Under the pieces are notes generated by a model. That model saw nothing but the letters and a program-made list of their open reading frames with translations, did not search any database and was not told where the DNA came from. A stretch of 64,000 bases of DNA from a virus: the IMG/VR virus record IMGVR_UViG_3300032293_001294, positions 11,710 through 75,709 of that record; one strand, written 5' to 3'. This document shows positions 14,620-56,050 of this stretch, piece after piece (position 1 is the stretch's first letter; each line of letters begins with the position of its first letter). The position numbers were made by a program, and so were the translations under genes.

Positions 14620-14637
14620 AGGTTTACCTCCAGGTTT

Positions 14638-14646: not shown

Positions 14647-14844
14647 CAGCTGATGTCTTTACAGGATCGGCTGTGTTTGGGACTTCACGTCCTACGAAGT
14701 GCTAGCTTTAAGGAGCCATCTTTAAAAACAAGGCGCTTGGTAGTGTAGGTAGTATATGTGGGCTCCCCCCTTAGAGTATCCTATGGATAGCTATATGATA
14801 TATATATATATAAGGAGATAAGGTACTGGTGGTAAATATTTTAT

Positions 14845-14871
14845 ATATACTACATATACTACATATACTAC
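14845..14871. repeat. Three tandem ATATACTAC 9-mers, plus an inverted copy at 14749-14757; iteron-like
   Basis: Read directly; flanked by (TA)n tracts at about 14798-14812 and 14948-14966. Confidence 0.7.
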
Positions 14872-15718: not shown

Positions 15719-15732
15719 TTAGTTTGTGAATT

Positions 15733-15760
15733 GAAAGCACCTAATCAGTGCTTTCTTTTT
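15733..15760 (+). terminator. Intrinsic terminator
   Basis: GAAAGCAC/GTGCTTTC stem followed by TTTTT. Confidence 0.75.
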
Positions 15761-15777
15761 CACTTAAAAACCCAAGA

Positions 15778-16007
15778 CGTAGCATCATACAATCTACGAC
15801 CAGTGTTATAAATTAACACTCAATCAAACATGTGTGGGATGTCCCCACCAATAATCATGGGCGCACCACCCGATACACAACATGTGTATTTTGGTGCATT
15901 AGAGGCAACCAGCGGTAATCAATCCGACTGGTATTCATAAGTCCTCTACCAATGAACTAATAGGGTAACTCCCTTAACAGTTCACCACAATATAGGGTTG
16001 TGACCTA
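15778..16007 (+). ncRNA. Candidate structured RNA/leader with at least 7 consecutive hairpins
   Basis: Adjacent inverted repeats separated by C/A-rich linkers; no credible ORF. Confidence 0.5.
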
Positions 16008-16038
16008 CCACAATGCTTTTCCATAGGAGGGAAAAACA

Positions 16039-30884: not shown

Positions 30885-33800
30885 TTATTTCAATATTGTA
30901 GCTTGTGATTGTCTGTACCGAACGTATTGTCTCCATTGAATATTCTTAACTAAACGATATGGATTAGTAGTAGGTCTACGCATTTTACCATACTTAGTAA
31001 ACCAATCCTTGTATATATTTTCATACTTAGCCCAACGTCCATTACGTCCATAACGATAACGACGTGGTGTATATTTTTTAAACTGACTTATATCATACCC
31101 AATACCAGATATAGTTCTAAATAAAGTTGCTTGTCTTGTATCTAATATACGTGCTAATGATGGATCATTGCGTGCAATATCTTCTCTAAGATTTGTACCC
31201 AACACCATGTCAGATAAACCAGTAGCAGTATTTACAAATCTTGTACCAAACCCAACAACAGCTAATTGAGCAAACCCTTTTAAAGCATCACCATCTTTAA
31301 ATAAACTTTGTATACCACGTAATAAAGGAGATGCTCTTCTAGTAAGTTCTATGTCAGTATTATAAATAAGATTCATGACATCAAATGCCCCGTTACCTAT
31401 TCTTAATCCCCAATCTTTAGCAAATGGAATCCATCCTTGACGGATTTGATATTTAGTAAAGTCATCATATTCTTTAGTTTCTTCATCTCTATATTGTGCA
31501 TACCAACCATCAATAAAGTCAGATAAAAATCTCCAATACTTAGGACTCATTAATCTATCAATCCAGTTATTAATAGAACGTACAGGGAAAGATAAGAATG
31601 GAATATCAGCAAGCAATCTAGTTTCTAACGGAGAACGCATACCATAATTAAACCAGTGATTTAAAGAATCTATTGTAGCTTGATCAAATGTTTTGTTATA
31701 CAACATTAAGTTATAAAAGAAGTTAGTAATACGTGCAGCGTTTTCTATCTTAGTATTAGAATCAGTATACCAAGCAACAGGATTAAACTTATTTAACCAA
31801 CCACCTTTAACTTTATCTAATTGTTTTACAATTTGTTTATAAGTCATATTAGATTTATATGAATCTTTATAACCTCTATATTGTTCAAAGAATTTAGGAA
31901 GTAATTCAAAACGGTCTTTACGTAAGTAGTCACTAAGTGCTTCTGTATTCATGAACGCACTTAATTGTTTTAATAAAGGTTTTTTAAATTCATACTCATC
32001 AACTTTTTCTGCAATAGTTTTATGTCTTACAATTTGTCCCTGATTATTTTTAGCATCAGTTCTTAAACCAGCAACCCAAGTATTATTAATAATTCGGTTA
32101 TCATACATTTCAATGTATTCACCGAACTCTGTTTTAGATGCAAAAATAACAGATTGTTTTAACAAGTCTAAATACTTATCAATATTATCAGCGTTAGCTT
32201 CTTTTAATTTTCTAAATAAATTGATAGCTACTTTACGTCTTGTTTCAATATGTCTATTATTATTTTTAAGTGTGTCAGATATTTTAATATAGTTGAGTAA
32301 GAATTCTTTAATTAAATCTAATTTATTATTAATTACATTAGAATCTTTAACTGGTAATTTACTTGCTTTTAAAACATCTTCATAATGTAAACCAATATTA
32401 ATGATACTAATACTTAATTCATCGCTATATTTTTCATACAACTTCATAAGTTCTAATGAGTTTAATGTACTATTAACATATCTATTAGACTCAATTAACT
32501 TAGGAATGATAATAGAGTTACTAAACATTTGATTAACACTATCAAAAATATTACGTGCTATGAAAGCGGCGTTTAATTTAGAAAGATTTTTTGACATGAT
32601 TTGTAATGAGAAGAAAAACTTATCTACTTTATTAGGCAATTGATAAGGAGAGTACACATCATTCATCGTGTCCATCCAGTCATTTAAATCTACAAAACCA
32701 ATGATATCACCTTTTAAATTTTGATCATAGATTTCTTGGAAGTCTTCAAAGTTATCTACAATGACTTCTTTTAAAGTAAAGTTAATATTTTTATTTGTAG
32801 CTAAAATTAATTTAGGATCAATACGGTTATACACTTTATTATCAAATACAACTTTACCACCAGCTCGTTGCCATGCTTCAAGGTTTTCTAAAGCAGAAAT
32901 CTTTTTACCATTTACAACTGTATCTTTAAATAATAAGTCATTATAAATAGAGTTATCAATTAAACCAAACTTTTGACCTACTTTTTCTATAATGTTTAAA
33001 TCTTTTTTCTTATTAGTTGGGAATAAAACATCATCATAACGTGGATCATATTTTCTAATGCGTTCTGTAACAAGTTTAAATCTACCTTCATCAGGATCAG
33101 CGTGTCTAATCTGCACAAGTTTAAACTGTTGTTGCTTTGTTGTGTATAGTTCGTAAGCATTTTTTAAACTTCTAATTCTATTATTAGAACTACTGTTATC
33201 AACCATGTTCTTTAATAAAGTAATGCGATTATACATACTAAGTAATGAACGTTCTTTATATGCTTTTAAATCTTGCTCAGTTAAAACTTTAGGTTTCTTA
33301 ACGGTAGTATCACCCATACCTTGACCACCTAAACCATCATCATCAGGAGTTCTTAATAAAAGAATTAAACCACCGATGTTATCAACCACAGCTTTCTTTA
33401 AAAGTTTGCTTCTAATATCTGCTTCTTTAGTATTAAGTTGAGTTATTTCTTCCTTAATAGTTTCTACTGGAGACTTACTTTGCTCAAGTAATTTAACGTA
33501 GTTGTCTAATGGATCAATGCTTTCTTCAATTTCTTTAATTTCATCTTGGAATAATGAAATTAATTCTTGAATCTTATCAGATTTTAACTTGTTATTTGTA
33601 GCTTTGTTGTTTAATTCAGACAATCTACTTATGTTATTTCTTGTTAATGTTTCTTCTAATTTAGATTTAATTTCTTTAGATTCAATAATCGTTTCAGCAT
33701 CTGTTTTATATTTTCTATTTTTAGTATCAGAATTTATTTTTTTAATAGTTGCTTCATATTCTTTTTTAGTTTCTAAAAGAACTTCGATTTGTGTTCTAAA

Positions 33801-36800
33801 ACTGTTAATTAAATCTTTATATTGTTTAACTGCACCATTAAATGTAGCGTAGTTTAAATTATCTTGCAGCTCTTCACTTACTTTATTCATAGCTTCTCTA
33901 CTAATTTCTTCAATAGGTGCTTGTAAATGTTCCATTGTAGGATCATCGTTTATAGCAAGTTTTAATTGAAGATTATTTTCATCAACAGATTTATTGATTT
34001 CATCTTTAGTTGGGAAATCTTCTCTGGTTAATAATTTTTTATTACCAAATTCATCTGTTCTATAATACCCTTCTTCAAAGTTATTAATGTTACTGAAGAA
34101 ATTAAATATAATCTTTTCTTCATTTTCATATTTACTATTAAAGGTTTTTTGGAAATCAGCATCAGCATATCTAAAGTTAAATATTTTAATGTTAACAATG
34201 TTATTAATAACATTATCTTTTGATGTGGTAAATTTTTCTTCCCCAATATAATTTCTTCTTACAACTGCTGTAACAGAGTCAATGTAATCAACAAAGTCTA
34301 CAAGTTTATAGAATGGAATATCATGTGTATCAAAGAATTGAATAGCTTTTTCTAAATCTTTTAACTTTAAATTCTTTGGATTATCTAAACCTTTGTTTAA
34401 TTCTTTTACATTGTTTATTAATTCTACAATAAGTGTGTCAGGGACAAACATATTAAATAAGAATACTTTTGCTTTTTGTTTTATTACTTTATCTAAATCT
34501 GATTTAGCATCTGCAACTTTTGTATAAGAATCTGAAATTAAAACTTGTCTTCCTGGATTTTCTTCAAACCATTTTTTATTAACTTCACTCTTAGATGTAC
34601 GTTTTAATGTATTATCAAAACGTTCATTCATTTCTCTGTCTAGATTAATAGCCATACCAAACAAACTATCATTGTCATTACTACCAATAATAACTTTTCT
34701 TCTTGCAGATTTTTCAATTAGTTTTTTCGTCTTATCTAATATACGTTTGGAAGCATCTGCTGCTTTTACTTCTTGACCATAGTGTTTAGGCAAGTCAATA
34801 GGTTCTTGAATTAAGAATGACATTCTATTTTGTGCAAGTCTTTCAATAATTTGTTGATTAAAGTATTCATTTAATAATGTTTCTGGGAGTACTTCAGATT
34901 TAGAACTTAAGTAATTTTTCATAACATTAACATCTACGAAGTAACGCATAGCAATTTCTTTTATAAAGTTTAAGTTTAATTTTTTCTTTGTTAAATCAGA
35001 TAGATCTTTAGAATTAAAAATACTTAAATACTCTTCAATAACAGGGTCGTTTTGTTTTGATGTTGATTTAAGCCAATCTTTAACTTCTTGCACTTCTAAA
35101 GTTTTATCAGTGTCTACTAAACTTAATGCTTTTAAATAAAAGTCTTTTAATTTTTTAAGTTCTTCTGCACCAGTTTTAACTTTATTTTTAACAATTAATA
35201 TATCATCTATGATTTCATTAATATCATCTTTGTAAATATCATAGAATTCTTTTTCAAAATTAGTAGCTATTCTAGATCTTAATACATCCGAAAACCAGTA
35301 AGCATTTATAAAGTAATTATAAAATTTATATTTAGAATCAAAATTTTCTTGAACAGCATCTTTTAATACAACTTCTCCTTCTACTTCTCTTGTGTTCTCT
35401 TCGTTTTGTAAAAGCTTTTGATACTCTTGATTGGATTCATTAACCCATGAGTCGTATTCATTTTTACTTAATGAATTAGATTTTAAAGCCAAAGCTTGTA
35501 ATAAAGAGTCAAATGTAATTGCGCCATCTGTATCAATAGCACCTATTTGTTCCCAGAAATAACCATACTTTAACTTGTTAATTGTTTTATACGTTGATAA
35601 GTGCGAAGAACTAAATTGACTCTTACGTTCAGAACCTACTCCTGGAATCGTTGTTTTACCTGCACGAACACGTTCAGTTGTTGTAATGTGTGTTTCATAA
35701 TAAGAAAGGATATTAACTAAATATTCGTATACTTTAGAATATTCAGTTGTGCCAATTAATTCTTTGTTATTTAAAATATCACGTTCTTCTTTATCTAAAA
35801 CCTTACTGTATATTTTAATTAAAGTATCAGGAATTTCAATGTTAGGAACTTGTTTAACAATCTTAGTTTCAACTTTTTCTTTTGTTTTAAATAAATCTCC
35901 AATAGTTTTTTCAATCAAAGGAAGATACTTAACATCTTCAAGACTACTAAATCTAGAACCAATACCAGCAATCTTGCCTTGTAATAAAGGAGCATTATTA
36001 ATCTTAGACCAAGTAAGTTTACCAGTAGATACAAACCATTGGTTTTGTTTAGGATCAAAAACATACACAGGTTTACCTAACTCTTGTGACATAGCTACGC
36101 CCCAACCAGTACCACCATCTACTGTGCCATCATTTTTTAAATACCCGGCAGCAACAATTGTGTCTGCATCATTAATAATAAAGTGATTTCTTATTTGTAA
36201 TAACTTTGTTATAGGATTAGTTGGAACATTTTTGTTTAATAATGCAGCAGCTTTAACTACAGCTTTTTCTGCTGTTTTAACTTCAACATCGCTCATATCA
36301 TTAACAGACATACTAAGAACAAAATTAGGTTGATCTTTAGGTTTGTCAACATCTCTGGCTACGTATACATTTGTCTTAATATTATTTTCACGTGCAAACT
36401 TTTGGAACAAACTATCAGAACCTGGAGCATTGCCACTACTTAATTGTACAAATGGTTGACCTTTAACTTTAACGTCAACTTTTTTAATGTCATTTTCAGG
36501 TTTAACTTTCCCGTATATAACCTTTTTATTTTTAATTAAATCTTCAATACTATATAGTTTATCTATAAAGTCTTTGTTATTATTATAATATTTTAATAGC
36601 AGATCTTGATTTTCATAATCTTTAAGACTTGTAATAACACCACCAAAGTTTTCACCTTTGTTTTTTAATTTAATATGAGCATTAACAAATGTTTTTAATA
36701 AGCTTGCAAAATTTGGATTGTTCTTTTCTTGATCTAAAGATTTAATTTCTTTACGATTAGTTTCAAAATAATCCATCAATTGATTTAATAGATTGGCTTC

Positions 36801-39800
36801 TTGAATAAAGTCATATCTTTCAATAGTCAAATACTCTTGATTGCTTCTGATAACTTTAGGAATAGCATACTTACCTACAATATTTCTTTCAAATTTATAG
36901 GTTATTCTTTGTGGATATTTTAAATCATGGACAATATTGTAGTCTACAAAACCAGGCATAATACTTTGTACCAGTTTTTCAATACTATCTTTAGGACTAA
37001 TAGTGTAATCTGGAATGTCGTTTTCTAAACTTCCAAAAAACTCTGTATCTGATTTTTCTAAATAACTTACAAGATTAACTACCTTACCTTGATCCTTAAT
37101 TTGTTTTTCATCAAGCGTATAGTAGTTATAATCTGTAGCTAAAAGCGGACGTAAAGGTGCGTCTTTACCTTCAATAGCATCTAAACCTACTATAGCCATA
37201 CCAAAAGCGTCACCGTCAGTATCAGCACCCATCATTGGATAACCGAATCCATTAACATAAGTTGCTGCTGACTTACTAAAACCAATAACTTTATACACAG
37301 GAACAGCGTTATAGTCTTGTTGTGGCGAACGGCTGCTTAATAAGTAAGCATATGTTTGATAGAACTTGTAATTAGTTCTTAATAACTTCTTAAGTTTTTC
37401 TTTATAATTAATGACAGGTCCTACAGCGTCCCAAAGTTTTTTGTTATCAGCTTCTAATAACCCGCGAGAATTTAAGAAATCTTCACGATCTTTACTATCT
37501 GTTAAGGTTAGTAAATGTTCTACATAATAGTTTATCTTTTCACTATCTGTAAGTTCTTCTACACCTATAATATTCTTTTGTTCTTTATTTCTATTTTGTA
37601 AAACACTCCAACCACTTGCAGGTATTACAATTTCACCGACATCTAGTGTTCTATCCAAAGCAAACTGCGCACGTATACCGCTTAATGTTTTAAACGACGC
37701 TTTATAGAATGCACTTTCCTTACCACTATAAAGTTTATCTGGAATATTAGCATCGGTATTCTTAACTAAAATATCTATTTCACTTTCGTAATACTTCTTC
37801 ATAGCAGGATCAACACTATTATTTAACATGCTTAAAAGTCTTACATACTTAATACCATTGGTATAAATAAGATTGTGGATAAGTTTATCCGCATATAACT
37901 TTTCTAAGTTATCTATTAATCCTTGTTCTTTTTTCTTAGTTATATTATCTTTAGTAACATTTAAAGTATTTAAAATATAATCTGAAAATCCTAGTATTCT
38001 TGGACGTGCTAGATTCTTAGCATTTGTTTGATCAAATGCAAATACTCTATTAAAATCATTTAAACCAATTTTGTTAAGTATTAATTGTAATGCAGCAGGA
38101 CCTATGGTTTGTCCAGTATCAACGTTGCTGTTATCATCTAATATATTAAATACAAACTTACCAATTGTCTTTGTATTAGATTCAGTATATTGAGCTTGTG
38201 GGTTATTCTCATGGTCAGCCATAACGTAGACGTTTCCTCTGACAAAAGAACCAGTCTTTAAATTAATGGTAGCGTAACGTCGTTCTAATAATTTATATGC
38301 GTCTAATTTTGCAGTATTAATATCTTGATAGGTTAATGGTTTATTTTGTAGACGAGACTTAGCAATAACAATAGGAACTTTAATTGGTGGTAGTTTATCA
38401 ATATCAGGATTGTTTTTAACATCATCAATTAAAACCCATTGATAGATATCATTTAAATCAAAACGAGCGTTTCCTTTTGCGTCATAAAAACTAGTTAAAG
38501 ATTTAATTTGATCTTTATATTTAAATAAAAGATTACTTAATCCTTCTAATTCATCTTGTGTTTTATAATATTTATTAATTAAAATACCATCTTCATTAAT
38601 GTTCTTTTTAAACGTTGCGTTTAAATACTCTTTGATTTCAGGAATATCAAATACTTCTTTTATTCTAGACGGTACAACTGCTTTACCATCTTGGTATGTT
38701 TCATTGTTTAAATAACTTGTTATATAGTTATATAACATTTCTACATACATACCTGATGTTCCACGTTTTGTTACAGACTCTGCGTTTGATAAGAAGAAAG
38801 CACCATATGTTTTATGTAGATCTTGTATAGGATAGATAGTACCTTTAAAACCGTGGTGTGTACCTAACCAAATTTTAGCTGACAATTCATAGCCAAATTC
38901 TTTTAAGAAATCAGCATCAACACCAATTGTATCAAGACCAACACGTGGATCATTAACCATTACAATAGGTAAAACTGTACCAAATTGATGTAGTTCAGCA
39001 TCTGCTTTATAGTTTTGGTACATTTCAGCACTCATAACGTTAGGCATAAATAATTGTGAATATTTATTACCAAACTTTCTAATAAATTTATTTCTTAAAT
39101 CAGGACTTAATGGATTTTTATTTATAAACGTTTCCATTAATTTTTTACCTGGGGCAACTTTATCAGGTATTTCTTTATACATACGATTAAGTAAACCAAT
39201 AGTAGTATACGTAGCCATTAAATGCTTAGCATGTAATTGTGTACGAATAGGGTTATCATTCATCGCAAATGGGAAGTTAAATGGAAGTCTTGGTTTTAGT
39301 TTATACACAACAGCTGTACTTGCTTCTGAGTTTAATTCTAAAGAAATATTATTTTCATCCAACCATTTATGATCAATATGTTCTAAATTATAGTCATAAC
39401 TATACTCATCACTAATTTGGTTGACTAAAGAACCACGTTCAAGGGCATTGTATTTAGAAGTAATTCTATTATAAATACCATTATAAACTTCTTTTAAATT
39501 AATATTCTTAATACCTTTATCATTAAGTAAGTTAATTTGATTAATAACAGCTTTTCTAATTATCTTGCTGATATTAGTAATCTTTAAATATCTATCACTT
39601 GCACCAAACTGTTCGTACGGGAATACTTCGCCTTCATTCTTTATTAAATAATTTAATAAAATATCAATTGCGTTTTTACTAGAATCAATTACTTCACCTT
39701 TTTCATTTATATCAGGTATTAAATATTCTTTAGGTATATTATCTGGTCCTAATACGTACTCAGGTTTTCCACCTTTAGGTTGGAAGTAAAACTGACTTTG

Positions 39801-48800: not shown

Positions 48801-51800
48801 TAATCCTGTTTCATTTTTGTTGTTAACAGCTAATACATAGTTATCTGCGTCGGTATTAATAATGTTATTAAAGTATGATTCAGCAGTTACACCGTCATCA
48901 TTTTTAATAAGATCCTTATATAATTCTTCAAAACCAGCATCTGTTTGAGGATTAACACCAAGACGTTCGTTAATGTTTTTATATTGTTCTTGAAGCTTTT
49001 TATATACTTCAACTCTGTTTTCAAACGCGCTTAAAACAAACTTATAGTTATTACGTTTAATATTAGTTACGTCATTTTTATAAAGTTCTAATTCAGCTTT
49101 TGCTTTTTCTTCTAATTCTTTATAACCTTTTAAACGTGTAGTTTGTGCTAAACCTTTAACATCTTTTACATCTTTAAAGAAAATATTTCTAATAATTAGT
49201 TTAGCATCTGATGCTTTTATGTTTGGATCAATGCCTTTACTTAATTCAATTAATGCTAATAAGTTTAAAGTTTCTAAACTTCTTAGTTGACCATTCACAT
49301 TATTAACATTAATCTTAAATAAATCATTGTTATTATCATCTTTAAATACAATAAAGTCGTTTGGTTTAGACCCTGCACTAATTAAATCTAAAGCTTCTTT
49401 ATAAGTATCTTCTATTTTCTTTCTATATTTAGTAGCATAGTTTACATTTAAAAAGGTTTCAAACGGTATATTGTTTTTATTATCAACGGTATAAATAGAG
49501 TTAGTAAGTGTTAATAATTTTCTAGCCGAGTTTATAACTGGATCAGAAAAGATTTTATACAACTCCGGTGTAGCATCTTTTTGTGACAGAAATAATTCTT
49601 TATCAATTGCTAAAGTATTATAGGATAAAACTGTATCCCATGTTTGTACAATCCGAGTATACTCAGCAATTGCTAATGCTCTTATTTCAGCTAAGTCCCC
49701 TAATTTTTTAGCATCATATGTCTTAGCCATTTCACTTACAACATTGTTTAATAGATCTATATAATCGTTATAGCTAATGCTATGGACAAATATTAAATCA
49801 AATAAACTAACGTTTGTTTCTTTTTCATTTTGTTTAAGTGTAAAAATAACGCTATTATTTTTACCTTGGTTTTCAACCACTTTTAAATCAGTAAAGTTTT
49901 TAAAATCTTCAATTAAATATTTATCAGCATAGTCTTCTGTTAAATTCTTTTGGATAGTATCTAATACTTTAAATATTAGATGGTCTCTGTCTTCTGGTTT
50001 CTTTAAGAAATCTTCTTCAATTCCTCTAATACTAGCATCTTGTAAGTATGCAAGTTTTGTTGTTGATGGATTTGTTTCTGCAATTTTAGGACTAATACTA
50101 GCTACAATATTTTGTTCTTCTTCTCTTAAATTATTGATAAGTCTTTTTAAAGTACTAATAAACGGTATACTTTCTTTAGAACGACTTACTTGATTATTTA
50201 ATATATTATTAGCATTATCAAATATTTCTAATAAAGTATCTTTGTTTGATTCATTTTTATTGTATTCATTTATTAAATCTTTTAGATATGCTCTAGCAGA
50301 TTTATTAGTTACATCTTCAGTTCCGGTTCTAACAAGTACAGTTTTCGCAGCACTGACTAAATAATTTTTAAATAAATCTGTAAAGTTTTCTTTAGCAAAT
50401 TTATTATCTTTGATAGAAATATCAACATCTATTTTTTGTTTAGTTAAATATTCATCATATATAATCTTAGCAATTTCATCTGCACTCATTGTAATTTTAA
50501 TATTTTTTACACTAATAATATCTCCATACTCTTTTAATAACTCTGCTAATTCATACGAAAATATCATGACTTTTTCTTTGTATTCAAGATCACTTCTATT
50601 TTTTGAATTTAAAAAGTTAATAAAAGAAATACTAGATTTACCTTTTTCTAATGAAAGTTGGCGCATTTTTAAACTGGCGGTGTACTTATTATTTTCAATA
50701 ACGTAGTTAGGTTCGTTTAGTATATCGTCAATAACCTTTATTTTTTCTACAGTAGCATCTAAAGATTTTGATGTTACTAAATCCAAAACATTTTCTTTTA
50801 GTTGATTTGTTACAAGTAACGGTGAATATATATCATCAGAGCCTGGACCTAGTACAGAGTTGACTACAGTTTTATCTGTAAACTTACTGCTATCATTCTT
50901 TACATTATTAAATACTGCTTTTGCTGCGTCTTTATATTTTAATTCATCAAGACGTTCTTCTGCTGCATCGTTTTTCATTGCATCAAATTGCTTGCTTAGT
51001 TCTTCAATTTCGTCATCTCTTAATGTTTCTAAAGCTAAAAGATCTTTTCCTTGTGAGAATTTTCTAATCTCATCAAGATCAAAGTCAGTTAAAAATGCTT
51101 TAGTAACTTCTGATTTAAGTTGGTTATCTATGATGTTATTAGGTATATTAATGTTCTTTAAAGACTTTTCAATATCAATATTTTTTATTTCTTTAGGTAG
51201 TTGCTTTGTTAATGCACTCTTTTTAAAGATGCTTAAAGAAGTAGCGTCTGTATTAAAATTATCATAGATATATGATTTAACATACTTATATACAGGCGAT
51301 CCTTTGAATAACTTTTCAAAGTTATCTTGCAAGTTTAAACTTAAGAATTTATTTAATTCTTTTTCATCTGTAATATTCTTTGTTTCATTTTTATAAATGT
51401 CATCAAACTCTTTTATTTTTTGAGCAACAGCTTCTAATGATTTACTTAGTGGGTTATTGCCGGATACTTGTTTAATGTTTTCTTGTATAGCATATCTGTA
51501 CAAATCTTTTAAATCTAATTTATTGGTATAAATAAATCTTGTTTTAGACCCACCTGAAAATCTATAGGCAATATCAATTTGTTTTGCGACTTCTCGTACT
51601 TTGTCTCCAGAAAGTAAAAATGTTTTATCTTTTAAATCTATGTCACTTGTAGCAATAAATTCTACAATTAATTTATACTTATCTTCTGTTTCAAGCTTTA
51701 ACCAAGCTTCTGGATCAACATTAAACAAAGGTTGATTAATATGTAATAAGTCATCATAAATGTCTTTAGTATTTTTAAAGTAGTTGTTTAAGATTCTTGA

Positions 51801-54800
51801 AACTCTAGTTTCAAATGTTTCTTTTATAGATATACCTACGTCAAAAATAACTTTATTACTTTGTTGTACACCAATAAAGAATTGATCTACATCTGTAACA
51901 CTTTCATTAAAGTAATGTGTTGTCTTTTTCTTTGTAATAGGATCTTCAACAATAATACTTAAGGTCAAACCGTTGTAAAAACTAACTAGGTTAATTGCTT
52001 TATCTTTTAAAATAGCAACCGCTTGTTTGTGTTTTTCAGCATCAAAACCACCAACAAGATCAGCAGGTCCTTTTTTACCAGCACTTATATTAGCAAGCAA
52101 GGTGCTTAATTCTTTTTCTTTAATAGCTAACTCGTCGTTTGTTTTATTAAGTTCGTCTCCGATATTGTTTTTTGTTGTAGTTAAAATCGTGATGTCTTTA
52201 ATTAACTTATCTTTAGCTTCTTTTTCAGCAGTACTATTTAATACGTTTGTTTTAATATCAATTTCTTTTTGTTTTTCAGCTTGTTGTTGTAGTAAAGTAA
52301 TTTTCTTTTTATTTAAAAAATTAACAGTATTTCTTAATAATGGTTCAGCTTGACCCTCAACATAAATATTAAAGTATTGTTTAAATAAATAAAGACTTTC
52401 AATCGTATCAAGAACAAAATTATCTAACTTTGTTACTTGTAAGTTTAAAAGAATTAATGCCTCTTCATATGTTTTTAAAGCTTGTTGAAGGATTTTTTTA
52501 TCAGTGATATACGTTTCGTACGTTTGTAATGCTTCATTTAAACCTACTAATTCAGGTTGTTCGTCCTTAGATATAGTGTTATTAGCTTCTTTTTGACGAA
52601 GCTCTACTAAACGATCATAATGTTTTGATAGATTTTTTTCTTCAATAATATATGTGTTTGCTTTTGTAGTAATTTCATACGGTTTATATTTAAAACGGTT
52701 TGCTTCGTCTTCTAATGTTTGTTGTTCAGATTTTAAATCAGCCAACATTTTTTGAATCATTTCAATCTTTTTAGTATTTGTATTATTAAGATCAGTAAGG
52801 TCTTTATTGTTAGCTAGTTGAGTTTTAATATCATTAAAGATAACTTCATCGCTGGCTGACAAAGGTCTATTATTTTTTAACGGATCTAAAATATTTTTTA
52901 AACGTTCTTCTTCAGTACTTCTTTGTTTTAATAAATCTTCTACCTCTTTAATTTTAGGTGTATTATTAAAACTATTTAGTATTGCTTTTTTTCTAACTTG
53001 TACACGCATTCTATCTTTTTCTTCTACTGTTTCTGCACGTGACAAATCGTTTAACCAACGGAATACTCTTTGAACTGGAGTTCTAATTAAAAATCCAATG
53101 GGGTTTAAAATGTTTACTAAAGAAGCATTCATGTCTTCTGTAAAGTCCATGTATGCTGAAAATGAATCTGTCTCTTTTAAATATTTAAAAGCATATTCGC
53201 TATCAAATTCTATAGAAAAACTTTGTAGTAATTTTCTTGCGACGACATCTACTTTTTCTTTACCAAACTTACCTGCTACATATTTTAAAAAACTTTGAAT
53301 ATTTTCTAATTCTGTTTCGTTTACATTCTTAGGAAACTTCTTATACTTATTGTAGTACTCATCAATGCTTTTAAACTTGTTAATTTTTTCGGCAAGTTTG
53401 ATAGCATCCGTATTGTTAACTAATAAAGGGGTAACATATGTACCTTCTTTTATTTCTGTTAACATTTTATTAAAAGTTTCAATCTGTTTAAATAATGAGT
53501 CTTTAGTACCTTGAGTAACTGTAACGCCTTTTTTTACTAAATTAAACTGTTCATTAAGATATTTTCTCAAAGCATCAGGACTTTTTAAACCTTCACTAAT
53601 GGCTCCTAATATAATACCCTTAGTAACATTATTATCTAAATTATAAAAAATACTTAAATCTTTATTAGAGAATAATTCTGTAATATCTTTTTTTATTATT
53701 TGAATTTCAGGGTCATTTAACTTTAAACCAACATCTAATCTTTTTAGTTCTTTATAAATTAATGCGTTAAAAGTATTAGCTTTATTAACGTCTAGTTTTG
53801 TTTTAACTACTTCATCTAAGTTTCTAGGATCAGTTAATATTTCACCTACAACACCTAATACGGATTTAATTGTAGGATGTGCGTTTTTTAAAAAATCAAC
53901 TTCTTCAATAATATCGCCAGCATAAATAACATATGGTGATTCAGTGCCTTTACCCCACGCACGTGCCATTGCATCAACTTGTGCTTTAGGATCATTTTTA
54001 GCAAGACCTAATAGTATAGATTTAGTTCTTGTAGCACCGTATAAGTTATCTTGTATATCACCAAATAAAGATATAGCTGATACAAAATCAGATTCTTCTG
54101 GTGCATTTGGATTTAATGCTTTATCTATTTGTGTTGTAATAGGCATGATTGCTTGAGTACCAATCATAGTTAACCCTGAACGAATTTGGTTTCCTAATAC
54201 ACTAGTAGTTAAAATTTTTGGTAAACCTAACATTAATTTATTTAAAACAGGCATACCAAATCTTGTACTTGTACCAATAAAACTTAAAGCAGCAGGTATA
54301 GCAATTTGACTTACAAGTGAAGCAACGGTTGATACAGGTCTAAATCGCATATTAGCTGTAACGTTTTCTGCAAATAATTGTTGAGATTTTAAACCAGATG
54401 GTGTTACTGATCTTCCAAAAACTTCTCCAACATAAGCACCTAATCTAGTTAATAAGCTAGCCCCAGATATAGCACCACCAGTTTTTATTAAACCACCAGC
54501 AACTACACGCGCACCTGGAATAGGTAGAAATGCTGTAATAGCACCAAGAAGAATTAAAGCAGAACCTGCAACATCAGCACTACTTAAACCAATATCTAAA
54601 GCAGATGCGCCACCTTGTATATCTTGTTGTAAACCATACAAAGATAATCCAAAGCCTAAACCTGCAACAGCAGTAGTTCCAATAGCTTTTAAACCAGATT
54701 TAGCAACAATAGCAGTGCCTTTAGCAATTTGATCAGGTCTTAATGTATTCACGCCTAATCGTGCTAGATCATCTACATACTCTGTTGATTTAATAAGTGC

Positions 54801-55571
54801 TTTACTTTGTGCGTTGCTAGCAAGTGCTAATGCTTTTGTTTTAGCTTCTAATGCTTTTTCCGCAGCTTCTACCGCTGCCTTTGCAGTTTGTTTAATAGCT
54901 GAAGTATTTTTTAAGTACTTAACTTTATCAAGTGCTGATACTGCAGCTTTATACGCATCATCTAAATTACCAACTTCTTTACTTAATGATGTTACTCTTT
55001 TTACTCTTGAAGCTAACGTTAAAGCATTTTTATTATACTGAGCAATTTTTTTAATTTGATTAGGATTGTAAGGAACTAGTCCTGCCTTTTGAAAAGCGGC
55101 AACCCTGCTAGATCCAACGGGTTTAAATGCAGTCTTAAGAGGATTTAAAAACGGATTTTGAACTGCAGGTAATTGATAGTTTTTAGGGTTAAGTAAACCT
55201 GTTAACTTTGTTCCTTGTTTAATAAACCCGCGTGTAAAAAGTCTACGTGTATAACCTAATCCTGCAAAAAGCCCGACACCTCCACCTATCACACTACCTA
55301 CTGTGCCTAAAGCTTTTTGTAGTTCTTCGTCATCATATCCATATTTAGATCTTATTTGATCCATGTAGTTTTCGCTGTTGACAGCAAAAGGACTACTTGC
55401 AAAACTTCTTAATGAATTTTCAAAAACGTTAGCTAAGTTTTTATTTGCTAAACCAAAGCTGTTATTTAACCCTCTATAAAAAGGAGATAAAGCAGGTGTA
55501 CTATATATGTTACCTACATAGATCCTGTTAAGAGCTGGTGTTAACGGTTTTCTTGGGAATAATAGTGCCAT
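30885..55571 (-). CDS. Giant polyvalent protein / putative virion RNA polymerase (about 8,230 aa)
   Basis: Two-barrel RNAP motifs KIWLGTHHGFKG, SRSP and GADTDGD; DnaQ-like IDIET and AHNGNKFD; SLOG-like SGNAPGSD...RN...GGTGW; hydrophobic Gly-rich N-terminus; likely start ATG 55571. Confidence 0.85.
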   Translation of the reverse strand: MALLFPRKPLTPALNRIYVGNIYSTPALSPFYRGLNNSFGLANKNLANVFENSLRSFASSPFAVNSENYMDQIRSKYGYDDEELQKALGTVGSVIGGGVGLFAGLGYTRRLFTRGFIKQGTKLTGLLNPKNYQLPAVQNPFLNPLKTAFKPVGSSRVAAFQKAGLVPYNPNQIKKIAQYNKNALTLASRVKRVTSLSKEVGNLDDAYKAAVSALDKVKYLKNTSAIKQTAKAAVEAAEKALEAKTKALALASNAQSKALIKSTEYVDDLARLGVNTLRPDQIAKGTAIVAKSGLKAIGTTAVAGLGFGLSLYGLQQDIQGGASALDIGLSSADVAGSALILLGAITAFLPIPGARVVAGGLIKTGGAISGASLLTRLGAYVGEVFGRSVTPSGLKSQQLFAENVTANMRFRPVSTVASLVSQIAIPAALSFIGTSTRFGMPVLNKLMLGLPKILTTSVLGNQIRSGLTMIGTQAIMPITTQIDKALNPNAPEESDFVSAISLFGDIQDNLYGATRTKSILLGLAKNDPKAQVDAMARAWGKGTESPYVIYAGDIIEEVDFLKNAHPTIKSVLGVVGEILTDPRNLDEVVKTKLDVNKANTFNALIYKELKRLDVGLKLNDPEIQIIKKDITELFSNKDLSIFYNLDNNVTKGIILGAISEGLKSPDALRKYLNEQFNLVKKGVTVTQGTKDSLFKQIETFNKMLTEIKEGTYVTPLLVNNTDAIKLAEKINKFKSIDEYYNKYKKFPKNVNETELENIQSFLKYVAGKFGKEKVDVVARKLLQSFSIEFDSEYAFKYLKETDSFSAYMDFTEDMNASLVNILNPIGFLIRTPVQRVFRWLNDLSRAETVEEKDRMRVQVRKKAILNSFNNTPKIKEVEDLLKQRSTEEERLKNILDPLKNNRPLSASDEVIFNDIKTQLANNKDLTDLNNTNTKKIEMIQKMLADLKSEQQTLEDEANRFKYKPYEITTKANTYIIEEKNLSKHYDRLVELRQKEANNTISKDEQPELVGLNEALQTYETYITDKKILQQALKTYEEALILLNLQVTKLDNFVLDTIESLYLFKQYFNIYVEGQAEPLLRNTVNFLNKKKITLLQQQAEKQKEIDIKTNVLNSTAEKEAKDKLIKDITILTTTKNNIGDELNKTNDELAIKEKELSTLLANISAGKKGPADLVGGFDAEKHKQAVAILKDKAINLVSFYNGLTLSIIVEDPITKKKTTHYFNESVTDVDQFFIGVQQSNKVIFDVGISIKETFETRVSRILNNYFKNTKDIYDDLLHINQPLFNVDPEAWLKLETEDKYKLIVEFIATSDIDLKDKTFLLSGDKVREVAKQIDIAYRFSGGSKTRFIYTNKLDLKDLYRYAIQENIKQVSGNNPLSKSLEAVAQKIKEFDDIYKNETKNITDEKELNKFLSLNLQDNFEKLFKGSPVYKYVKSYIYDNFNTDATSLSIFKKSALTKQLPKEIKNIDIEKSLKNINIPNNIIDNQLKSEVTKAFLTDFDLDEIRKFSQGKDLLALETLRDDEIEELSKQFDAMKNDAAEERLDELKYKDAAKAVFNNVKNDSSKFTDKTVVNSVLGPGSDDIYSPLLVTNQLKENVLDLVTSKSLDATVEKIKVIDDILNEPNYVIENNKYTASLKMRQLSLEKGKSSISFINFLNSKNRSDLEYKEKVMIFSYELAELLKEYGDIISVKNIKITMSADEIAKIIYDEYLTKQKIDVDISIKDNKFAKENFTDLFKNYLVSAAKTVLVRTGTEDVTNKSARAYLKDLINEYNKNESNKDTLLEIFDNANNILNNQVSRSKESIPFISTLKRLINNLREEEQNIVASISPKIAETNPSTTKLAYLQDASIRGIEEDFLKKPEDRDHLIFKVLDTIQKNLTEDYADKYLIEDFKNFTDLKVVENQGKNNSVIFTLKQNEKETNVSLFDLIFVHSISYNDYIDLLNNVVSEMAKTYDAKKLGDLAEIRALAIAEYTRIVQTWDTVLSYNTLAIDKELFLSQKDATPELYKIFSDPVINSARKLLTLTNSIYTVDNKNNIPFETFLNVNYATKYRKKIEDTYKEALDLISAGSKPNDFIVFKDDNNNDLFKINVNNVNGQLRSLETLNLLALIELSKGIDPNIKASDAKLIIRNIFFKDVKDVKGLAQTTRLKGYKELEEKAKAELELYKNDVTNIKRNNYKFVLSAFENRVEVYKKLQEQYKNINERLGVNPQTDAGFEELYKDLIKNDDGVTAESYFNNIINTDADNYVLAVNNKNETGLVRRAEVKTIQNAGEGIPSLNNLLINYVYGNNSTAVRNKVINRLKVNQSFDVIYKSLWEQELKTRVENMRNTMTGEELIKNKVPLNDKDFNQYVVDYKENIVPIITDNGRAIVIVPDNKWSLKTMEEDRATFKQLMNGNKDTYDVFEVYILSESKYKEIENIKNNKKDYADIDLYKVDDTVKFLPRFINVQSSINRTIGSVVKGWLNDLNLITKLGNPSSLVKNLNTFYKNLYSNDNLKGFVPIYKFYNEGIDLYNTEQFKETEKEALFNIVFFEFFEGFDYSGLEIEYIGSTFLNGKYLTKEYNINNLEKDVNPMTVADLKDKNVWDKIVKSLEAVKSRYENNINIKDLSYYNIMDEKHLNKLERFYNIVNDLLTHVESTQNKAYTELVPIIKEHIENAQPKIVTISNVRNQLTAHELLSKPLTEKLSDAFGNMFDVKKRNTVLDTFEINAKKHLEKQQYYLDNLQTVIQEGVKNHKKIKDKVKNKSISIAKMVSLKNVFNDFQTQKINAQELYEKLKEYVGVEPSVRKIFKTIAQRIFKNNPNGYKNADRITDHLIYAYVIKSYLVSIRQYMERYPGDRFDIQAYLNYYDVLNRLVSNGQQIGVDKLTGYNLNLYKQALSLKKEVESTPNKSQKYKFNKKHLKFISNKTDFLTYTKFKDAGEVVDLVNNRQNIVDNIEDITIDTYIVDYIKGEFGYDLDDKEKINLIQAAGSVLDSANNYLYSSKDEKIYTPKTPLVFSETNKLELIKEELRNKGFTKSQIDTVIEIGSKGFGETIISPVDIEEFKKVFEDKDLQKKDFYRDQIKEAAKADKPKLEKKLSYRRIFEINRINLLENSEEFFNYFRKVIRPNNSDFKKAINNWSVFGLDQDEVITLIQKDGYNDIEHFINTHANIKTKETTEDFYKASLLMLFINYQKEKFIREKLKTDGKAEISNDDIKKAFELESIKAKSNNIKLQTISINDLLGYGSSLKTGVKFQLNKGFENIRYIRSTNSFLNDRLGNIILDEENLKTFDEYDSSYKGIYFKDNNVETLVRRHQRNAYKHLYRDYEAGFVGEKTYELMQLTKDAIADISAEHNSPSWQVASGKVVYNDLRKSWHDLFKELKPDYKDKEFIKPSEIDTALKSLSVSKASVNFFINTYNKLIFDAKTNYLKNHGKDLDVSGKVKTDEVLIKEFDDVIKNAIDQIKLFSEKNQSFIIFNDNNIKAILGFIYTARYSNSEKLTMDLSSFIDKQIKNDVKYKQYRYKQVDTKIERIIESNENDLTKAEAIAKLQGKTFNELTKEKQNTILQNVYLMNFIKGSKDFFGKDRWFDTYKAAVGPKRTMQSFTTLEEKKEEVLKLELDLLNKKLLNTKNENVNILNKTLGENTQQELFGKYTNSIPLLTQNTMDLILDTNKELDTVEQSISVEQKAFNKEKLELINNMFIVYPGLKQLFDEQYFKSIEEEKLKINNDVIELNKKTSQRIKDEYKAYLESIATIKEIESSNVYQITRISKGKNIASNFAMFKDAYAAYKVPGTDKFITTLEDLKAVYDMSKQTNLEERLKKARDIAENTFKKFKGKERSNYTNYFNSISLFNKRLDREELNRLRLEFNDLENVENMLPALLKSSEEYNKLIKTNVVSNAKSIAIDDSTLSKIDKYHSKAIEKNKALLRGFGIQIRDYVYRIDSNYKEDKKLTLKDYINILDSYAITSITSLDNKLVDNIPSYKALISLSDKNAEKQILLSVLLDYKVQELATTKGGKITETEYRSLESFINTTIGRKTNQDILNYIEDEASSGKNVDVFKHGFGSNDVEVDLSVFKNPEHLSYATTLKNNINNKLKNKYNKVLSKTVVDIKDILNKSVSLMNRLSIDESIKSSIIFSVDPKERVKKVEDRINLNVSNTKALYSNLNKKVFDNTIDTSNVSLSELVSFVVENNETTKIVELNNKKQDINNKLKDANEYLNLINRYKSNLGVIKTVEDTLPIKQEDVLKAEKASETSYKSELEFVGKKLSNLELFKQYYKDQLKDTKNNQEVLEKVAEIITSKTKGYTKESLINKVNTEGEFALHDSLVDIMPTALNYIHQKNVLKEKGLTDEFAVIDIETYKQNGQEFPYQMSMLYIDKNGELQIHNAYINSSLFYNAINEDGSYTKEIEEFYRFQKNEVWKKQWENDGLILNDEQLELKAREKLNKLIETVSTKQNNDNFIRAFIQIIGVENNFKIVAHNGNKFDFGIIQNFISQVGKKLVVNEYYRSIKEDNSINNVLKNIDPKLNDIERNKEYKKQLELIISRLENKILANKNSLEAKPQELDAVGELIEQAIRAKWKLELNEFTKEALYDTDYIFNDELKKKLLDFNDGELGNVSNELEKYVINRDPKIKEKVINTLAIKFLNSYSTDQQTVQIHKIILDAVTKFVENAPNTFDRLIVGGPNNLVTFNKDDANTTLKKEITKHVYATYGKDLELKDIEIDYGKKLKTIELAKAAKNDLIAMLEKGKTKDEIIQATKERKAEKVKRINELKSEIETLLNGDPSNDTQVISQVGLTKERNVILEEMLSAARKIAEDNSTSLSSIKIALNNPKVVLNNVIGLSNLGVMENRIDQTNKKLNDLISNLNNLLGFIRQEKDLSKQESLMLKVFDESVIDVIKDPTKQKSAIAALQNQIDLIFKGRTSIDDEAVRDILNKELTVLKNQQKSDLDIYLKELENNFKIVNDNLVKYKALGLGKNIEIFEYKYNKEQSYWYYLDSNKQEIKVNLQDINKYLLSLTNDSNNKNFFDRNQTTLFRLFKNINDIRSIENFSKYTLDDLYDSRTFFYDKDIFVSIINQKLESLQNSINFLTNYKANDIGKINENVLSVYYTNILKEVGVQETNVDNAMERTITEIIKGVPSSDRMSLEQYQTLASTRIDKKEIDKSPRKKNLNIEIEYEEPRKGDDISVLRQVPNRIFSRPFGPITKYFVYDEVYNRINTATFDNINKTLKLELKYVYTTKDNEYMNRPDEKLMTKVFKLDDEGNLDSQAIDTLKNMQSQFYFQPKGGKPEYVLGPDNIPKEYLIPDINEKGEVIDSSKNAIDILLNYLIKNEGEVFPYEQFGASDRYLKITNISKIIRKAVINQINLLNDKGIKNINLKEVYNGIYNRITSKYNALERGSLVNQISDEYSYDYNLEHIDHKWLDENNISLELNSEASTAVVYKLKPRLPFNFPFAMNDNPIRTQLHAKHLMATYTTIGLLNRMYKEIPDKVAPGKKLMETFINKNPLSPDLRNKFIRKFGNKYSQLFMPNVMSAEMYQNYKADAELHQFGTVLPIVMVNDPRVGLDTIGVDADFLKEFGYELSAKIWLGTHHGFKGTIYPIQDLHKTYGAFFLSNAESVTKRGTSGMYVEMLYNYITSYLNNETYQDGKAVVPSRIKEVFDIPEIKEYLNATFKKNINEDGILINKYYKTQDELEGLSNLLFKYKDQIKSLTSFYDAKGNARFDLNDIYQWVLIDDVKNNPDIDKLPPIKVPIVIAKSRLQNKPLTYQDINTAKLDAYKLLERRYATINLKTGSFVRGNVYVMADHENNPQAQYTESNTKTIGKFVFNILDDNSNVDTGQTIGPAALQLILNKIGLNDFNRVFAFDQTNAKNLARPRILGFSDYILNTLNVTKDNITKKKEQGLIDNLEKLYADKLIHNLIYTNGIKYVRLLSMLNNSVDPAMKKYYESEIDILVKNTDANIPDKLYSGKESAFYKASFKTLSGIRAQFALDRTLDVGEIVIPASGWSVLQNRNKEQKNIIGVEELTDSEKINYYVEHLLTLTDSKDREDFLNSRGLLEADNKKLWDAVGPVINYKEKLKKLLRTNYKFYQTYAYLLSSRSPQQDYNAVPVYKVIGFSKSAATYVNGFGYPMMGADTDGDAFGMAIVGLDAIEGKDAPLRPLLATDYNYYTLDEKQIKDQGKVVNLVSYLEKSDTEFFGSLENDIPDYTISPKDSIEKLVQSIMPGFVDYNIVHDLKYPQRITYKFERNIVGKYAIPKVIRSNQEYLTIERYDFIQEANLLNQLMDYFETNRKEIKSLDQEKNNPNFASLLKTFVNAHIKLKNKGENFGGVITSLKDYENQDLLLKYYNNNKDFIDKLYSIEDLIKNKKVIYGKVKPENDIKKVDVKVKGQPFVQLSSGNAPGSDSLFQKFARENNIKTNVYVARDVDKPKDQPNFVLSMSVNDMSDVEVKTAEKAVVKAAALLNKNVPTNPITKLLQIRNHFIINDADTIVAAGYLKNDGTVDGGTGWGVAMSQELGKPVYVFDPKQNQWFVSTGKLTWSKINNAPLLQGKIAGIGSRFSSLEDVKYLPLIEKTIGDLFKTKEKVETKIVKQVPNIEIPDTLIKIYSKVLDKEERDILNNKELIGTTEYSKVYEYLVNILSYYETHITTTERVRAGKTTIPGVGSERKSQFSSSHLSTYKTINKLKYGYFWEQIGAIDTDGAITFDSLLQALALKSNSLSKNEYDSWVNESNQEYQKLLQNEENTREVEGEVVLKDAVQENFDSKYKFYNYFINAYWFSDVLRSRIATNFEKEFYDIYKDDINEIIDDILIVKNKVKTGAEELKKLKDFYLKALSLVDTDKTLEVQEVKDWLKSTSKQNDPVIEEYLSIFNSKDLSDLTKKKLNLNFIKEIAMRYFVDVNVMKNYLSSKSEVLPETLLNEYFNQQIIERLAQNRMSFLIQEPIDLPKHYGQEVKAADASKRILDKTKKLIEKSARRKVIIGSNDNDSLFGMAINLDREMNERFDNTLKRTSKSEVNKKWFEENPGRQVLISDSYTKVADAKSDLDKVIKQKAKVFLFNMFVPDTLIVELINNVKELNKGLDNPKNLKLKDLEKAIQFFDTHDIPFYKLVDFVDYIDSVTAVVRRNYIGEEKFTTSKDNVINNIVNIKIFNFRYADADFQKTFNSKYENEEKIIFNFFSNINNFEEGYYRTDEFGNKKLLTREDFPTKDEINKSVDENNLQLKLAINDDPTMEHLQAPIEEISREAMNKVSEELQDNLNYATFNGAVKQYKDLINSFRTQIEVLLETKKEYEATIKKINSDTKNRKYKTDAETIIESKEIKSKLEETLTRNNISRLSELNNKATNNKLKSDKIQELISLFQDEIKEIEESIDPLDNYVKLLEQSKSPVETIKEEITQLNTKEADIRSKLLKKAVVDNIGGLILLLRTPDDDGLGGQGMGDTTVKKPKVLTEQDLKAYKERSLLSMYNRITLLKNMVDNSSSNNRIRSLKNAYELYTTKQQQFKLVQIRHADPDEGRFKLVTERIRKYDPRYDDVLFPTNKKKDLNIIEKVGQKFGLIDNSIYNDLLFKDTVVNGKKISALENLEAWQRAGGKVVFDNKVYNRIDPKLILATNKNINFTLKEVIVDNFEDFQEIYDQNLKGDIIGFVDLNDWMDTMNDVYSPYQLPNKVDKFFFSLQIMSKNLSKLNAAFIARNIFDSVNQMFSNSIIIPKLIESNRYVNSTLNSLELMKLYEKYSDELSISIINIGLHYEDVLKASKLPVKDSNVINNKLDLIKEFLLNYIKISDTLKNNNRHIETRRKVAINLFRKLKEANADNIDKYLDLLKQSVIFASKTEFGEYIEMYDNRIINNTWVAGLRTDAKNNQGQIVRHKTIAEKVDEYEFKKPLLKQLSAFMNTEALSDYLRKDRFELLPKFFEQYRGYKDSYKSNMTYKQIVKQLDKVKGGWLNKFNPVAWYTDSNTKIENAARITNFFYNLMLYNKTFDQATIDSLNHWFNYGMRSPLETRLLADIPFLSFPVRSINNWIDRLMSPKYWRFLSDFIDGWYAQYRDEETKEYDDFTKYQIRQGWIPFAKDWGLRIGNGAFDVMNLIYNTDIELTRRASPLLRGIQSLFKDGDALKGFAQLAVVGFGTRFVNTATGLSDMVLGTNLREDIARNDPSLARILDTRQATLFRTISGIGYDISQFKKYTPRRYRYGRNGRWAKYENIYKDWFTKYGKMRRPTTNPYRLVKNIQWRQYVRYRQSQATILK

Positions 55572-55582
55572 GTTCAAAAACT

Positions 55583-55591
55583 ATTATAGCA
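55583..55591 (-). promoter_or_regulatory. Extended -10 promoter TGCTATAAT for the giant gene
   Basis: Perfect TGnTATAAT 11 nt before the ATG; no Shine-Dalgarno. Confidence 0.65.
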
Positions 55592-55592
55592 T

Positions 55593-55628
55593 AAAAAAAC
55601 CACCGCAATAACTGCAGTGGTCTTTTTT
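55593..55628 (-). terminator. Intrinsic terminator of the capsid operon
   Basis: GACCACTGCAG / TTGCGGTGGTT stem followed by a T-run on minus. Confidence 0.75.
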
Positions 55629-55644: not shown

Positions 55645-55983
55645 CTACATCTTCTTAAAGTCGCCAGATGCTTGGGTGTCCATAAACTTAGCGGTCGTTT
55701 TTGAAACGCGAATTTGACGATCGATGTGGTGCAAATACTTTAATAACGAATTGTAATGTCCACGTGATAATACAAATTCAGTGCCATCAACTGGGAACTT
55801 TTTAAAGTTGCCATTAAACGCTACGGTTACAGTGTCTCCAATATAACGGGCGTACAAAGGGGAGATTGAATAACGAACGTTAGATTCTTGATAAACCTTT
55901 AGATCGTTTTGACGAGCTTTAGTTTCTCGGTCTTCAATACCTTTGATAAGACTGGATGTTAGTTCAAATGTGTCTTTTGCCAT
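55645..55983 (-). CDS. Hypothetical protein downstream of MCP (possible head accessory)
   Basis: AAGGAGG RBS; codon usage similar to MCP. Confidence 0.75.
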   Translation of the reverse strand: MAKDTFELTSSLIKGIEDRETKARQNDLKVYQESNVRYSISPLYARYIGDTVTVAFNGNFKKFPVDGTEFVLSRGHYNSLLKYLHHIDRQIRVSKTTAKFMDTQASGDFKKM

Positions 55984-56050
55984 TTGAGTGCTGCCTCCTT
56001 TCTTTAAGAGTACGGTTTAACCTGTCCCACCGCTAAAGGTTAGTAATCAA

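Follow-up and report, generated by a model that had tools for sequence, protein, structure and literature searches.

A predicted single-chain two-barrel RNA polymerase core within a giant, cysteine-free protein of a freshwater tailed phage

Introduction

The virion RNA polymerase (RNAP) of phage N4 is a protein of 3,500 amino acids (aa) that is packaged and injected, and its terminal domains serve injection and encapsidation. Virion-borne RNAPs with two double-psi beta-barrels (DPBBs) are already known from crAss-like phages and from Thermus phage P23-45. The crAss-like enzyme (phi14:2 gp66, PDB 6VR4) is packaged and transcribes the early genes (10.1101/2020.03.07.982082; PMC7886860), and in some crAss-like phages the RNAP lies within fused huge polyproteins (10.1101/2020.03.07.982082). 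In P23-45, the virion RNAP gp96 (PDB 8H2N) forms a fusion with the tape measure protein of 5,002 aa (PMC10770324). The crAss-like and P23-45 enzymes were recognised only by structure because their sequences have diverged past detection; the known families of two-barrel RNAPs have no detectable mutual sequence similarity outside the DxDxD region (PMC10770324). Furthermore, polymerases of the N4 type occur in the injected 'polyvalent' proteins of phages (PMC5512222). In the present study, we analysed a stretch of viral DNA of 64,000 nucleotides (the window), which comprises bases 11710-75709 of one 75,709-bp viral contig (IMG/VR record IMGVR_UViG_3300032293_001294). Its minus strand carries a giant gene, in which the initial annotation had noticed three RNAP-like motifs and had proposed a single-chain two-barrel RNAP fused into an ejected polyprotein.

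Results and Discussion

Predicted folds together with invariant catalytic residues lead us to conclude that the giant protein contains a single-chain two-barrel RNAP core at residues ~5,500-6,180, with the beta-like barrel first and the beta'-like barrel after it, as the initial annotation had supposed. The first AlphaFold model (m4594962048f2) covered residues 5200-6360 with an alignment of 15 sequences and had a predicted local distance difference test score (pLDDT) of 67 and a predicted template modelling score (pTM) of 0.56, with core blocks at pLDDT 70-90; the second (m95cc3ef42e70), of the beta-like part alone (residues 5470-5810), had a pLDDT of 75.7 and a pTM of 0.78. When the first model was compared with the PDB by Foldseek, the ~50 listed matches were all largest subunits of multisubunit RNAPs, including that of phage AR9 (best E 5.7e-4). 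By VIA-align, model residues 765-982 superposed on Rpb1 357-542 and on E. coli beta' 347-507, the barrel bearing NADFDGD, and the beta'-like barrel reached Z 12.4, with a root-mean-square deviation of 2.0-2.5 Å over ~110 residues. A wide VIA search over 48,161 representative chains, independent of Foldseek, likewise matched model residues 697-982 to largest RNAP subunits, and model residues 241-598 to second-largest ones, namely African swine fever virus RPB2 (Z 11.9), Pol I A135 (11.3), NRPD2 (10.9) and bacterial beta (9.7). Single-chain two-barrel enzymes spanning both halves were also found (P23-45 gp96, Z 9.4; QDE-1, 8.2; P74 gp62, 7.6; RDR2, 6.7; PolD, 6.2), and generic DPBB proteins ranked after them. 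With the second model, the top nine matches of the wide search were second-largest RNAP subunits, those of AR9 and PhiKZ among them (Z 8.8-10.7, 167-197 aligned residues), and the next match had Z 5.1; matches in BFVD were viral RNAP subunits. The structure-prediction comparison with cellular RNAP that had been proposed thus placed double-psi barrels around the motifs. Three features of the two-barrel superfamily are present, namely two packed DPBB domains (here in predicted structure), a D-x-D-x-D motif and a K...K-G basic pair.

The motifs of the family were aligned by eye to E. coli beta and beta' sequences taken from a record, and the signature motifs of both subunits follow the same order as in the cellular subunits, with near-identical spacing. 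For beta, NFED corresponds to AFED in distant family members and to PLD in the giants, GDKMAGRHGNKG to GNKTWLGLHYGFKG, and PSRMNIGQILE to SRGTAGVYGE with identical spacing. For beta', SGRSVI..GP.L...CGLP corresponds to DGIRQQFLADVTLDxGEI, and NRAPTLH...(35)...NADFDGD to ARSPVQDY...(36)...GADNDGD. The window protein itself reads KIWLGTHHGFKG at the GDKMAGRHGNKG site, where K, G, F, K and G are invariant in 12 sequences and K5568 with K5578-G5579 forms a conserved basic pair. All three Asp of the D-x-D-G-D loop are invariant in 13 sequences, and SRSP lies 35 residues ahead of the first catalytic Asp. The three motifs first noticed lie where they had been placed, except that SRSP is shifted by one nucleotide (Table 1). 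The F-to-T change inside the loop had been taken as the mark of a divergent lineage, a view that did not survive the family alignment: most relatives carry N after the first Asp (GADNDGD), and, apart from the window protein, T occurs only in the 68%-identical fragment P0006.

The RNAP motifs sit within the most conserved blocks of the whole giant protein. One alternative is that the barrels have lost their activity and are a structural relic, or that the models over-read a generic DPBB fold. Generic DPBB proteins do match, with Z 6-8, and significance was not reached at the sequence level. However, the Asp triad, both Lys of the pair, R-S-P (R-x-P) and S-R..G...E stay invariant at 30-40% overall identity, and for the beta-like module RNAP subunits beat generic DPBBs by ~5 Z units; we regard such a relic or over-reading as most improbable. 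Another possibility is a chemistry other than DNA-templated transcription, such as RNA-dependent RNA synthesis of the QDE-1/RDR type, priming, or DNA synthesis like that of PolD. QDE-1, RDR2 and the DP2 subunit of PolD are indeed among the structural matches at the Z scores given above, two Atlas leads pointed to the PolD catalytic domain and to the RNA-dependent RNA polymerase family PF05183 (both scored 0.80), and an exonuclease-like module lies within the same chain. Against this, the matches to DNA-dependent multisubunit RNAPs score higher (Z 10-12) and extend over more residues, motifs specific to beta and beta' are kept, and the phage encodes its own family-A DNA polymerase and primases, so that a different chemistry seems to us very unlikely.

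Compared with known systems, the best structural match of each barrel is to the beta and beta' subunits of multisubunit RNAPs, including the split enzymes of AR9 and PhiKZ (Z 10.7 and 12.4), and the sequence likeness extends to NFED-like, K..G.KG, SR..G...E, SG.R, R.P and D.DGD motifs in the same order. Unlike in those enzymes, both barrels lie here in one chain, with ~500 residues between K..KG and DxDGD, the core is embedded in 8,228 aa, and no clamp, bridge helix, trigger loop or small subunits were identified. In the models, each barrel resembles the cellular-type beta or beta' more than the enzymes of the QDE-1/crAss type. Since unusually many cellular beta/beta' motifs are kept, the protein bears on the question of whether single-chain RNAPs arose from multisubunit enzymes or gave rise to them.

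The reading frame spans 30885..55577 on the minus strand and, counted from an in-frame TTG at 55577, encodes 8,230 aa, the length first assigned to it. The ATG at 55571 (residue 3 of the TTG frame) is the more likely start, because the homologues start MALL.P.KP, and from there the protein has 8,228 aa, 946 kDa and a pI of 8.4. The gene takes up 38.6% of the window, close to the earlier figure of about 39%, and 32.6% of the 75,709-bp contig. Seven homologues of 6,661-7,998 aa from other metagenomes are collinear with it end to end at 30-42% identity, contigs from an independent study cover 14 kb of it at ~98.6% identity with no indels, and 35 of the 40 listed variants fall at codon position 3 of the frame (binomial p = 2e-12). 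These three observations rule out a chance open reading frame (ORF) or an assembly artefact, and the giant gene is one genuine ORF under selection, of 8,228 codons, in a tailed phage. Conservation along the protein peaks at residues 4300-4500, 5300-5700, 5900-6200, 6600-6700 and 7400-8230. No Shine-Dalgarno site precedes the gene (window 55572-55600), whereas an AAGGAGG-type ribosome site is present in 34 of 46 genes, and TGCTATAAT lies 11 nt upstream of the ATG; this suggests a near-leaderless and weakly translated message.

Outside the RNAP core, the chain is made up of several distinct regions (Table 1). Strongly hydrophobic segments occur in the N-terminal region only and are conserved in the homologues, and residues ~600-5,200 are rich in Lys, Asn and Glu and poorly conserved. 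The ExoI and ExoII motifs of the exonuclease-like region are invariant in the aligned relatives; no ExoIII motif was identified in this region, and its family matches were sub-threshold (PF10108, E 0.017; TREX1, E 0.99). The DprA/SLOG-like domain is a clean insertion peculiar to the protein of this phage and is exactly missing from L003 and L004. The phage also has a stand-alone DprA gene in its early module (window 16732-17508, plus strand; PF02481, E 1e-24); the insert as a copy of this gene was considered and rejected, as the two are unrelated. In one lake run (X4), a variant of the insert has +1 and -1 indels that offset each other in two pairs (36210/36216 and 36262/36269), and in each pair the frame is regained within a few codons.

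The C-terminal module is the best-conserved part. A look-alike lead from Atlas, LPD38, was not confirmed there by Pfam, even at E 10. In the relative P0011 (2,662 aa, with a Met start) the RNAP core is followed directly by the C-terminal module; therefore, the minimal unit appears to consist of these two, to which the first ~5,300 residues would have been added. Long contigs also encode proteins of 1,500-3,747 aa with a match to the C-terminal module, and the N-terminal 620 aa used as a query gave no informative shorter relatives.

Table 1. Positions of the giant gene, of its modules and motifs, and of neighbouring genes in the window
Feature	Position	Residues	Strand	Remarks
Giant gene	30885..55571		-	ATG at 55571, 8,228 codons and stop at 30885-30887; TTG adds 2 residues
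N-terminal Gly/Ala-rich region	54270..55313	89-436	-	Membrane-helix-like segments at residues 89-107, 329-364 and 418-436 (Kyte-Doolittle)
DnaQ/DEDD-exonuclease-like motifs	42153..42590	~4337-4469	-	ExoI VIDIETY 42546-42569; ExoII IVAHNGxxFDF ~42171-42203
Beta-like module	38187..39056	~5508-5797	-	Predicted double-psi beta-barrel and flanking elements of second-largest RNAP subunit
KIWLGTHHGFKG	38841..38876	5568-5579	-	By motif, beta GDKMAGRHGNKG
Beta'-like module	37035..37892	~5896-6181	-	Predicted double-psi beta-barrel with catalytic loop
SRSP	37323..37334	6082-6085	-	Family R-S-P motif; beta' N-R-A-P
GADTDGD	37209..37229	6117-6123	-	Predicted Mg-binding D-x-D-G-D loop
DprA/SLOG-like domain	35898..36482	6366-6560	-	phrog_768, E 7.7e-9; PF10686, E 0.058
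C-terminal module	30888..34868	~6904-8230	-	Best-conserved part; Arg/Tyr/Trp-rich tail at the end
Portal	3311-5110		-
TerL	5375-7240		-
112-aa ORF	within 55645..58051		-	Between capsid-like gene and giant gene
Major-capsid-like gene	56051-58051		-	666 aa; upstream neighbour of giant gene, same operon
Tail-fibre gene	60033-63926+		-

It is suggested that the giant protein is made late, packed in the particle and ejected with the DNA, and that its RNAP core then transcribes the first phage genes; we hold this account to be probable, with a good measure of reserve. The gene closes an operon that also includes the capsid and tail-fibre genes, and it faces the convergent replication module, which on the plus strand at 16.0-30.6 kb holds DprA, clamp-loader-like, primase, single-stranded DNA-binding protein, helicase, family-A DNA polymerase, exonuclease and Sak4-like genes. 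No further RNAP was recognised in the scanned ORFs of the contig. In addition, across the window gene and homologues P0002-P0008, none of the seven giants has a cysteine in ~54,000 residues, whereas the other proteins of the phage have 0.55% Cys, from which ~45 would be expected in the giant chain, and ~96 would be expected from base composition by codon position. Packaging and ejection are thus plausible because of the late-operon position, the lack of another recognised RNAP, the zero Cys count and the N-terminal hydrophobic helices. The virion proteins of this phage (major capsid protein (MCP), tail fibre and portal) are also poor in Cys.

The protein would be expressed late, alongside the structural genes, and each particle would take up one or a few copies, to be released into the host along with the DNA. 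The host membrane may be engaged by the N-terminal hydrophobic helices, and these, together with the Lys/Asn/Glu-rich first ~5,300 residues, may help the protein to pass through the host envelope or to span it. As in N4, crAss-like phages and P23-45, transcription of the first phage genes would then fall to the RNAP core and be independent of the host enzyme. Two further modules, the exonuclease-like and the DprA/SLOG-like one, could be accessory cargo, like that of the 'polyvalent' injected proteins, and the C-terminal module, which is always found with the RNAP, is a candidate for packaging or for binding DNA or the portal. As an alternative, an active two-barrel RNAP could be kept in the infected cell, serving middle or late genes or anchored in the membrane, and never be packaged. 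Two-barrel non-virion RNAPs of phages do exist (AR9, PhiKZ, P23-45 gp64) and appear among the structural matches. The gene, however, ends a capsid and tail-fibre operon and lies outside the replication or early module, the total avoidance of Cys and the N-terminal hydrophobic helices suit a translocated protein, and a late-made RNAP would presumably be of little use unless carried into the next cell. We therefore consider a polymerase confined to the infected cell unlikely.

P23-45 gp96 offers a precedent for a single-chain two-barrel RNAP within a giant virion protein, and the match to it extends over 170 aa and both barrels. On this model the giant protein would be a tape-measure fusion, with an RNAP domain attached to the ruler of a very long siphovirus tail. 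Besides the listed match to gp96 across both barrels (Z 9.4), one BFVD match is annotated as a siphovirus 'minor tail protein', and the Lys/Asn/Glu-rich first ~5,300 residues could form a long helical region. The resemblance is limited in several respects. The RNAP of gp96 occupies the N-terminus, and the remaining chain is tape measure, encoded in a siphovirus tail module. The RNAP of the giant protein is instead placed ~70% along the chain, its genome is podovirus-like and shows no tail-tube context, and the structural match is weaker than that to cellular-type subunits. In addition, TerL, portal and MCP resemble those of the podovirus API480, the scanned ORFs around the giant gene gave no recognisable tail-tube, sheath, chaperone, Dit or Tal genes, and the giant gene ends its operon, likewise in the relatives. 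A tape-measure fusion is in our judgement distinctly unlikely.

For the packaged and ejected polymerase, the initial annotation had drawn a parallel with phi14:2 gp66 of the crAss-like phages. The likeness is one of concept and proposed function, in that a two-barrel RNAP, here a predicted one, lies in a very large and fast-evolving protein encoded beside structural genes, but the parallel does not extend to sequence or to listed structural matches: hhalign against the single gp66 sequence gave a probability < 1%, and gp66 was not among the structural matches listed. Furthermore, TerL, portal and MCP are not Crassvirales-like, and no zincin protease was seen here. The N4 virion RNAP is similar as a giant multidomain protein joining a polymerase with other modules, but it has a T7-like right-hand fold and not two barrels. 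In joining exonuclease-like motifs and a DprA/SLOG-like insert (phrog_768, 7.7e-9) to an RNAP core in one chain, the giant protein recalls the polyvalent proteins; unlike in these, hub domains (MuF, MPTase, SNF2, methylases) and a processing peptidase were not found here by Pfam, PHROGs and motif scan.

Several points weigh against a packaged polymerase of this kind. The evidence for the fold comes from AlphaFold models built on only 11-15 sequences, the active-site loops (model residues 885-891 and 921-924) have pLDDT < 50, and neither bridge helix nor trigger loop was identified in the RNAP core. No significant sequence or profile similarity to a known two-barrel RNAP was found by Pfam, PHROGs, phmmer and hmmsearch against the PDB, or hhalign. 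No protease that would free the RNAP from the ~1 MDa chain was found; Pfam and the motif scan gave neither a protease domain or signature nor an HExxH motif in the giant protein, and the earlier term 'polyprotein' is accordingly not kept here. To our knowledge, a cargo of 946 kDa is larger than any characterised ejected phage protein. Finally, no repeated candidate promoter motif was found in the early region, and the counts of sigma-70-like promoters equal the shuffled expectation.

The family of the giant protein is, to judge from the searches made, very rare. When 1.84 billion representative proteins were scanned in full with HMMER, 13 relatives were found, of which three are short fragments aligning solely over the R-S-P...G-x-D-N-D-G-D block, and no relative was found in 185,579 prokaryote species genomes. 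A search of viral contigs with a single protein as query gave no match, and the only match in a search of metagenome contigs was the source IMG contig. Pfam gave no match on either half of the protein, and PHROGs gave the DprA-like match only. Against all PDB sequences, phmmer and hmmsearch with family profiles found nothing for the RNAP, exonuclease-like and C-terminal tiles; none of 50,697 phage records matched the RNAP region by tblastn; and hhalign comparison of the family tiles with phi14:2 gp66, E. coli rpoB and E. coli rpoC gave no significant result.

What sets this protein apart from the known cases is the unrelated and very rare sequence family, its non-Crassvirales backbone and freshwater setting, the chain of 8,228 aa and the absence of Cys. 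The giant protein would be a further, sequence-unrelated RNAP lineage in a different phage backbone and habitat, and, as a phage protein that is probably ejected, it would extend the known size range up to 946 kDa, encoded by one third of the contig, which poses the questions of how so long a chain can be packaged and then translocated. The complete lack of Cys over ~54,000 residues of homologues offers a simple, testable signature of an ejected lifestyle. More speculatively, the protein may represent a new single-chain RNAP lineage derived straight from a cellular-type beta-beta' pair, not from the QDE-1/crAss/YonO clade, within a Cys-free 'ejectosome' of ~1 MDa made of one polypeptide; we put this forward tentatively, as an idea that is doubtful at present. 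If true, one and the same protein would insert into the membrane, span the envelope with a spacer, bring along nuclease and DNA-handling cargo and carry out the first transcription of the incoming genome. It would rank among the largest known proteins of phages, and its carriers would be a podovirus-like group from freshwater.

The source contig is, by its gene content, a tailed-phage genome. TerL, portal and MCP are closest to those of the Paenibacillus podophage API480 (32%, 23% and 27-41% identity, respectively). No Crassvirales record was found among the listed TerL matches or the organism tallies, and the phage is evidently not crAss-like. Two IMG/VR contigs of 72.8 and 70.0 kb (79% and 66% complete by CheckV) have the same layout, and the convergent replication genes downstream of the giant gene were seen directly in both; the order MCP, small ORF, giant gene was derived by hand from locus offsets, in relative G001 only. 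The MCPs of these two relatives are 75-78% identical to that of this phage and the giant proteins 30-42%; therefore, the giant protein evolves fast. The capsid-like protein, of 666 aa compared with 313 aa in API480, matches the latter in two blocks split by an insertion of ~170 residues, and the rest of the excess in size is unmatched N- and C-terminal sequence.

Phage DNA was detected in lake and freshwater metagenomes of a dozen studies, and no RNA run was among the public runs listed as containing it. A Bacillota/Mollicutes-like host, as had been proposed, is unsupported by the habitat and by the lack of a relative in the prokaryote genomes searched; the only pointers to it are the distant likeness of TerL, portal and MCP to a Paenibacillus podophage and the AAGGAGG sites. 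The strong use of AAGGAGG argues against a Bacteroidota host. ARAGORN found no tRNA or tmRNA in the window.

Between the divergent modules, ~1.6 kb of the window (14400-16030) is mostly non-coding and unusually GC-rich. C-tracts (cccccacccccctaccccc), TATATA repeats and a 129-aa ORF occur there, as does an inverted repeat of 20 nt (14740-14759 and 14852-14871); the stretch may serve as an origin or in regulation, or may be a mobile insert. In L006 (genome 1-12300), the structural block downstream of the portal contains, on the minus strand, a 1,495-aa ORF with no family match (4935-9422) and a 436-aa protein with BspA-type leucine-rich repeats (9415-10725).

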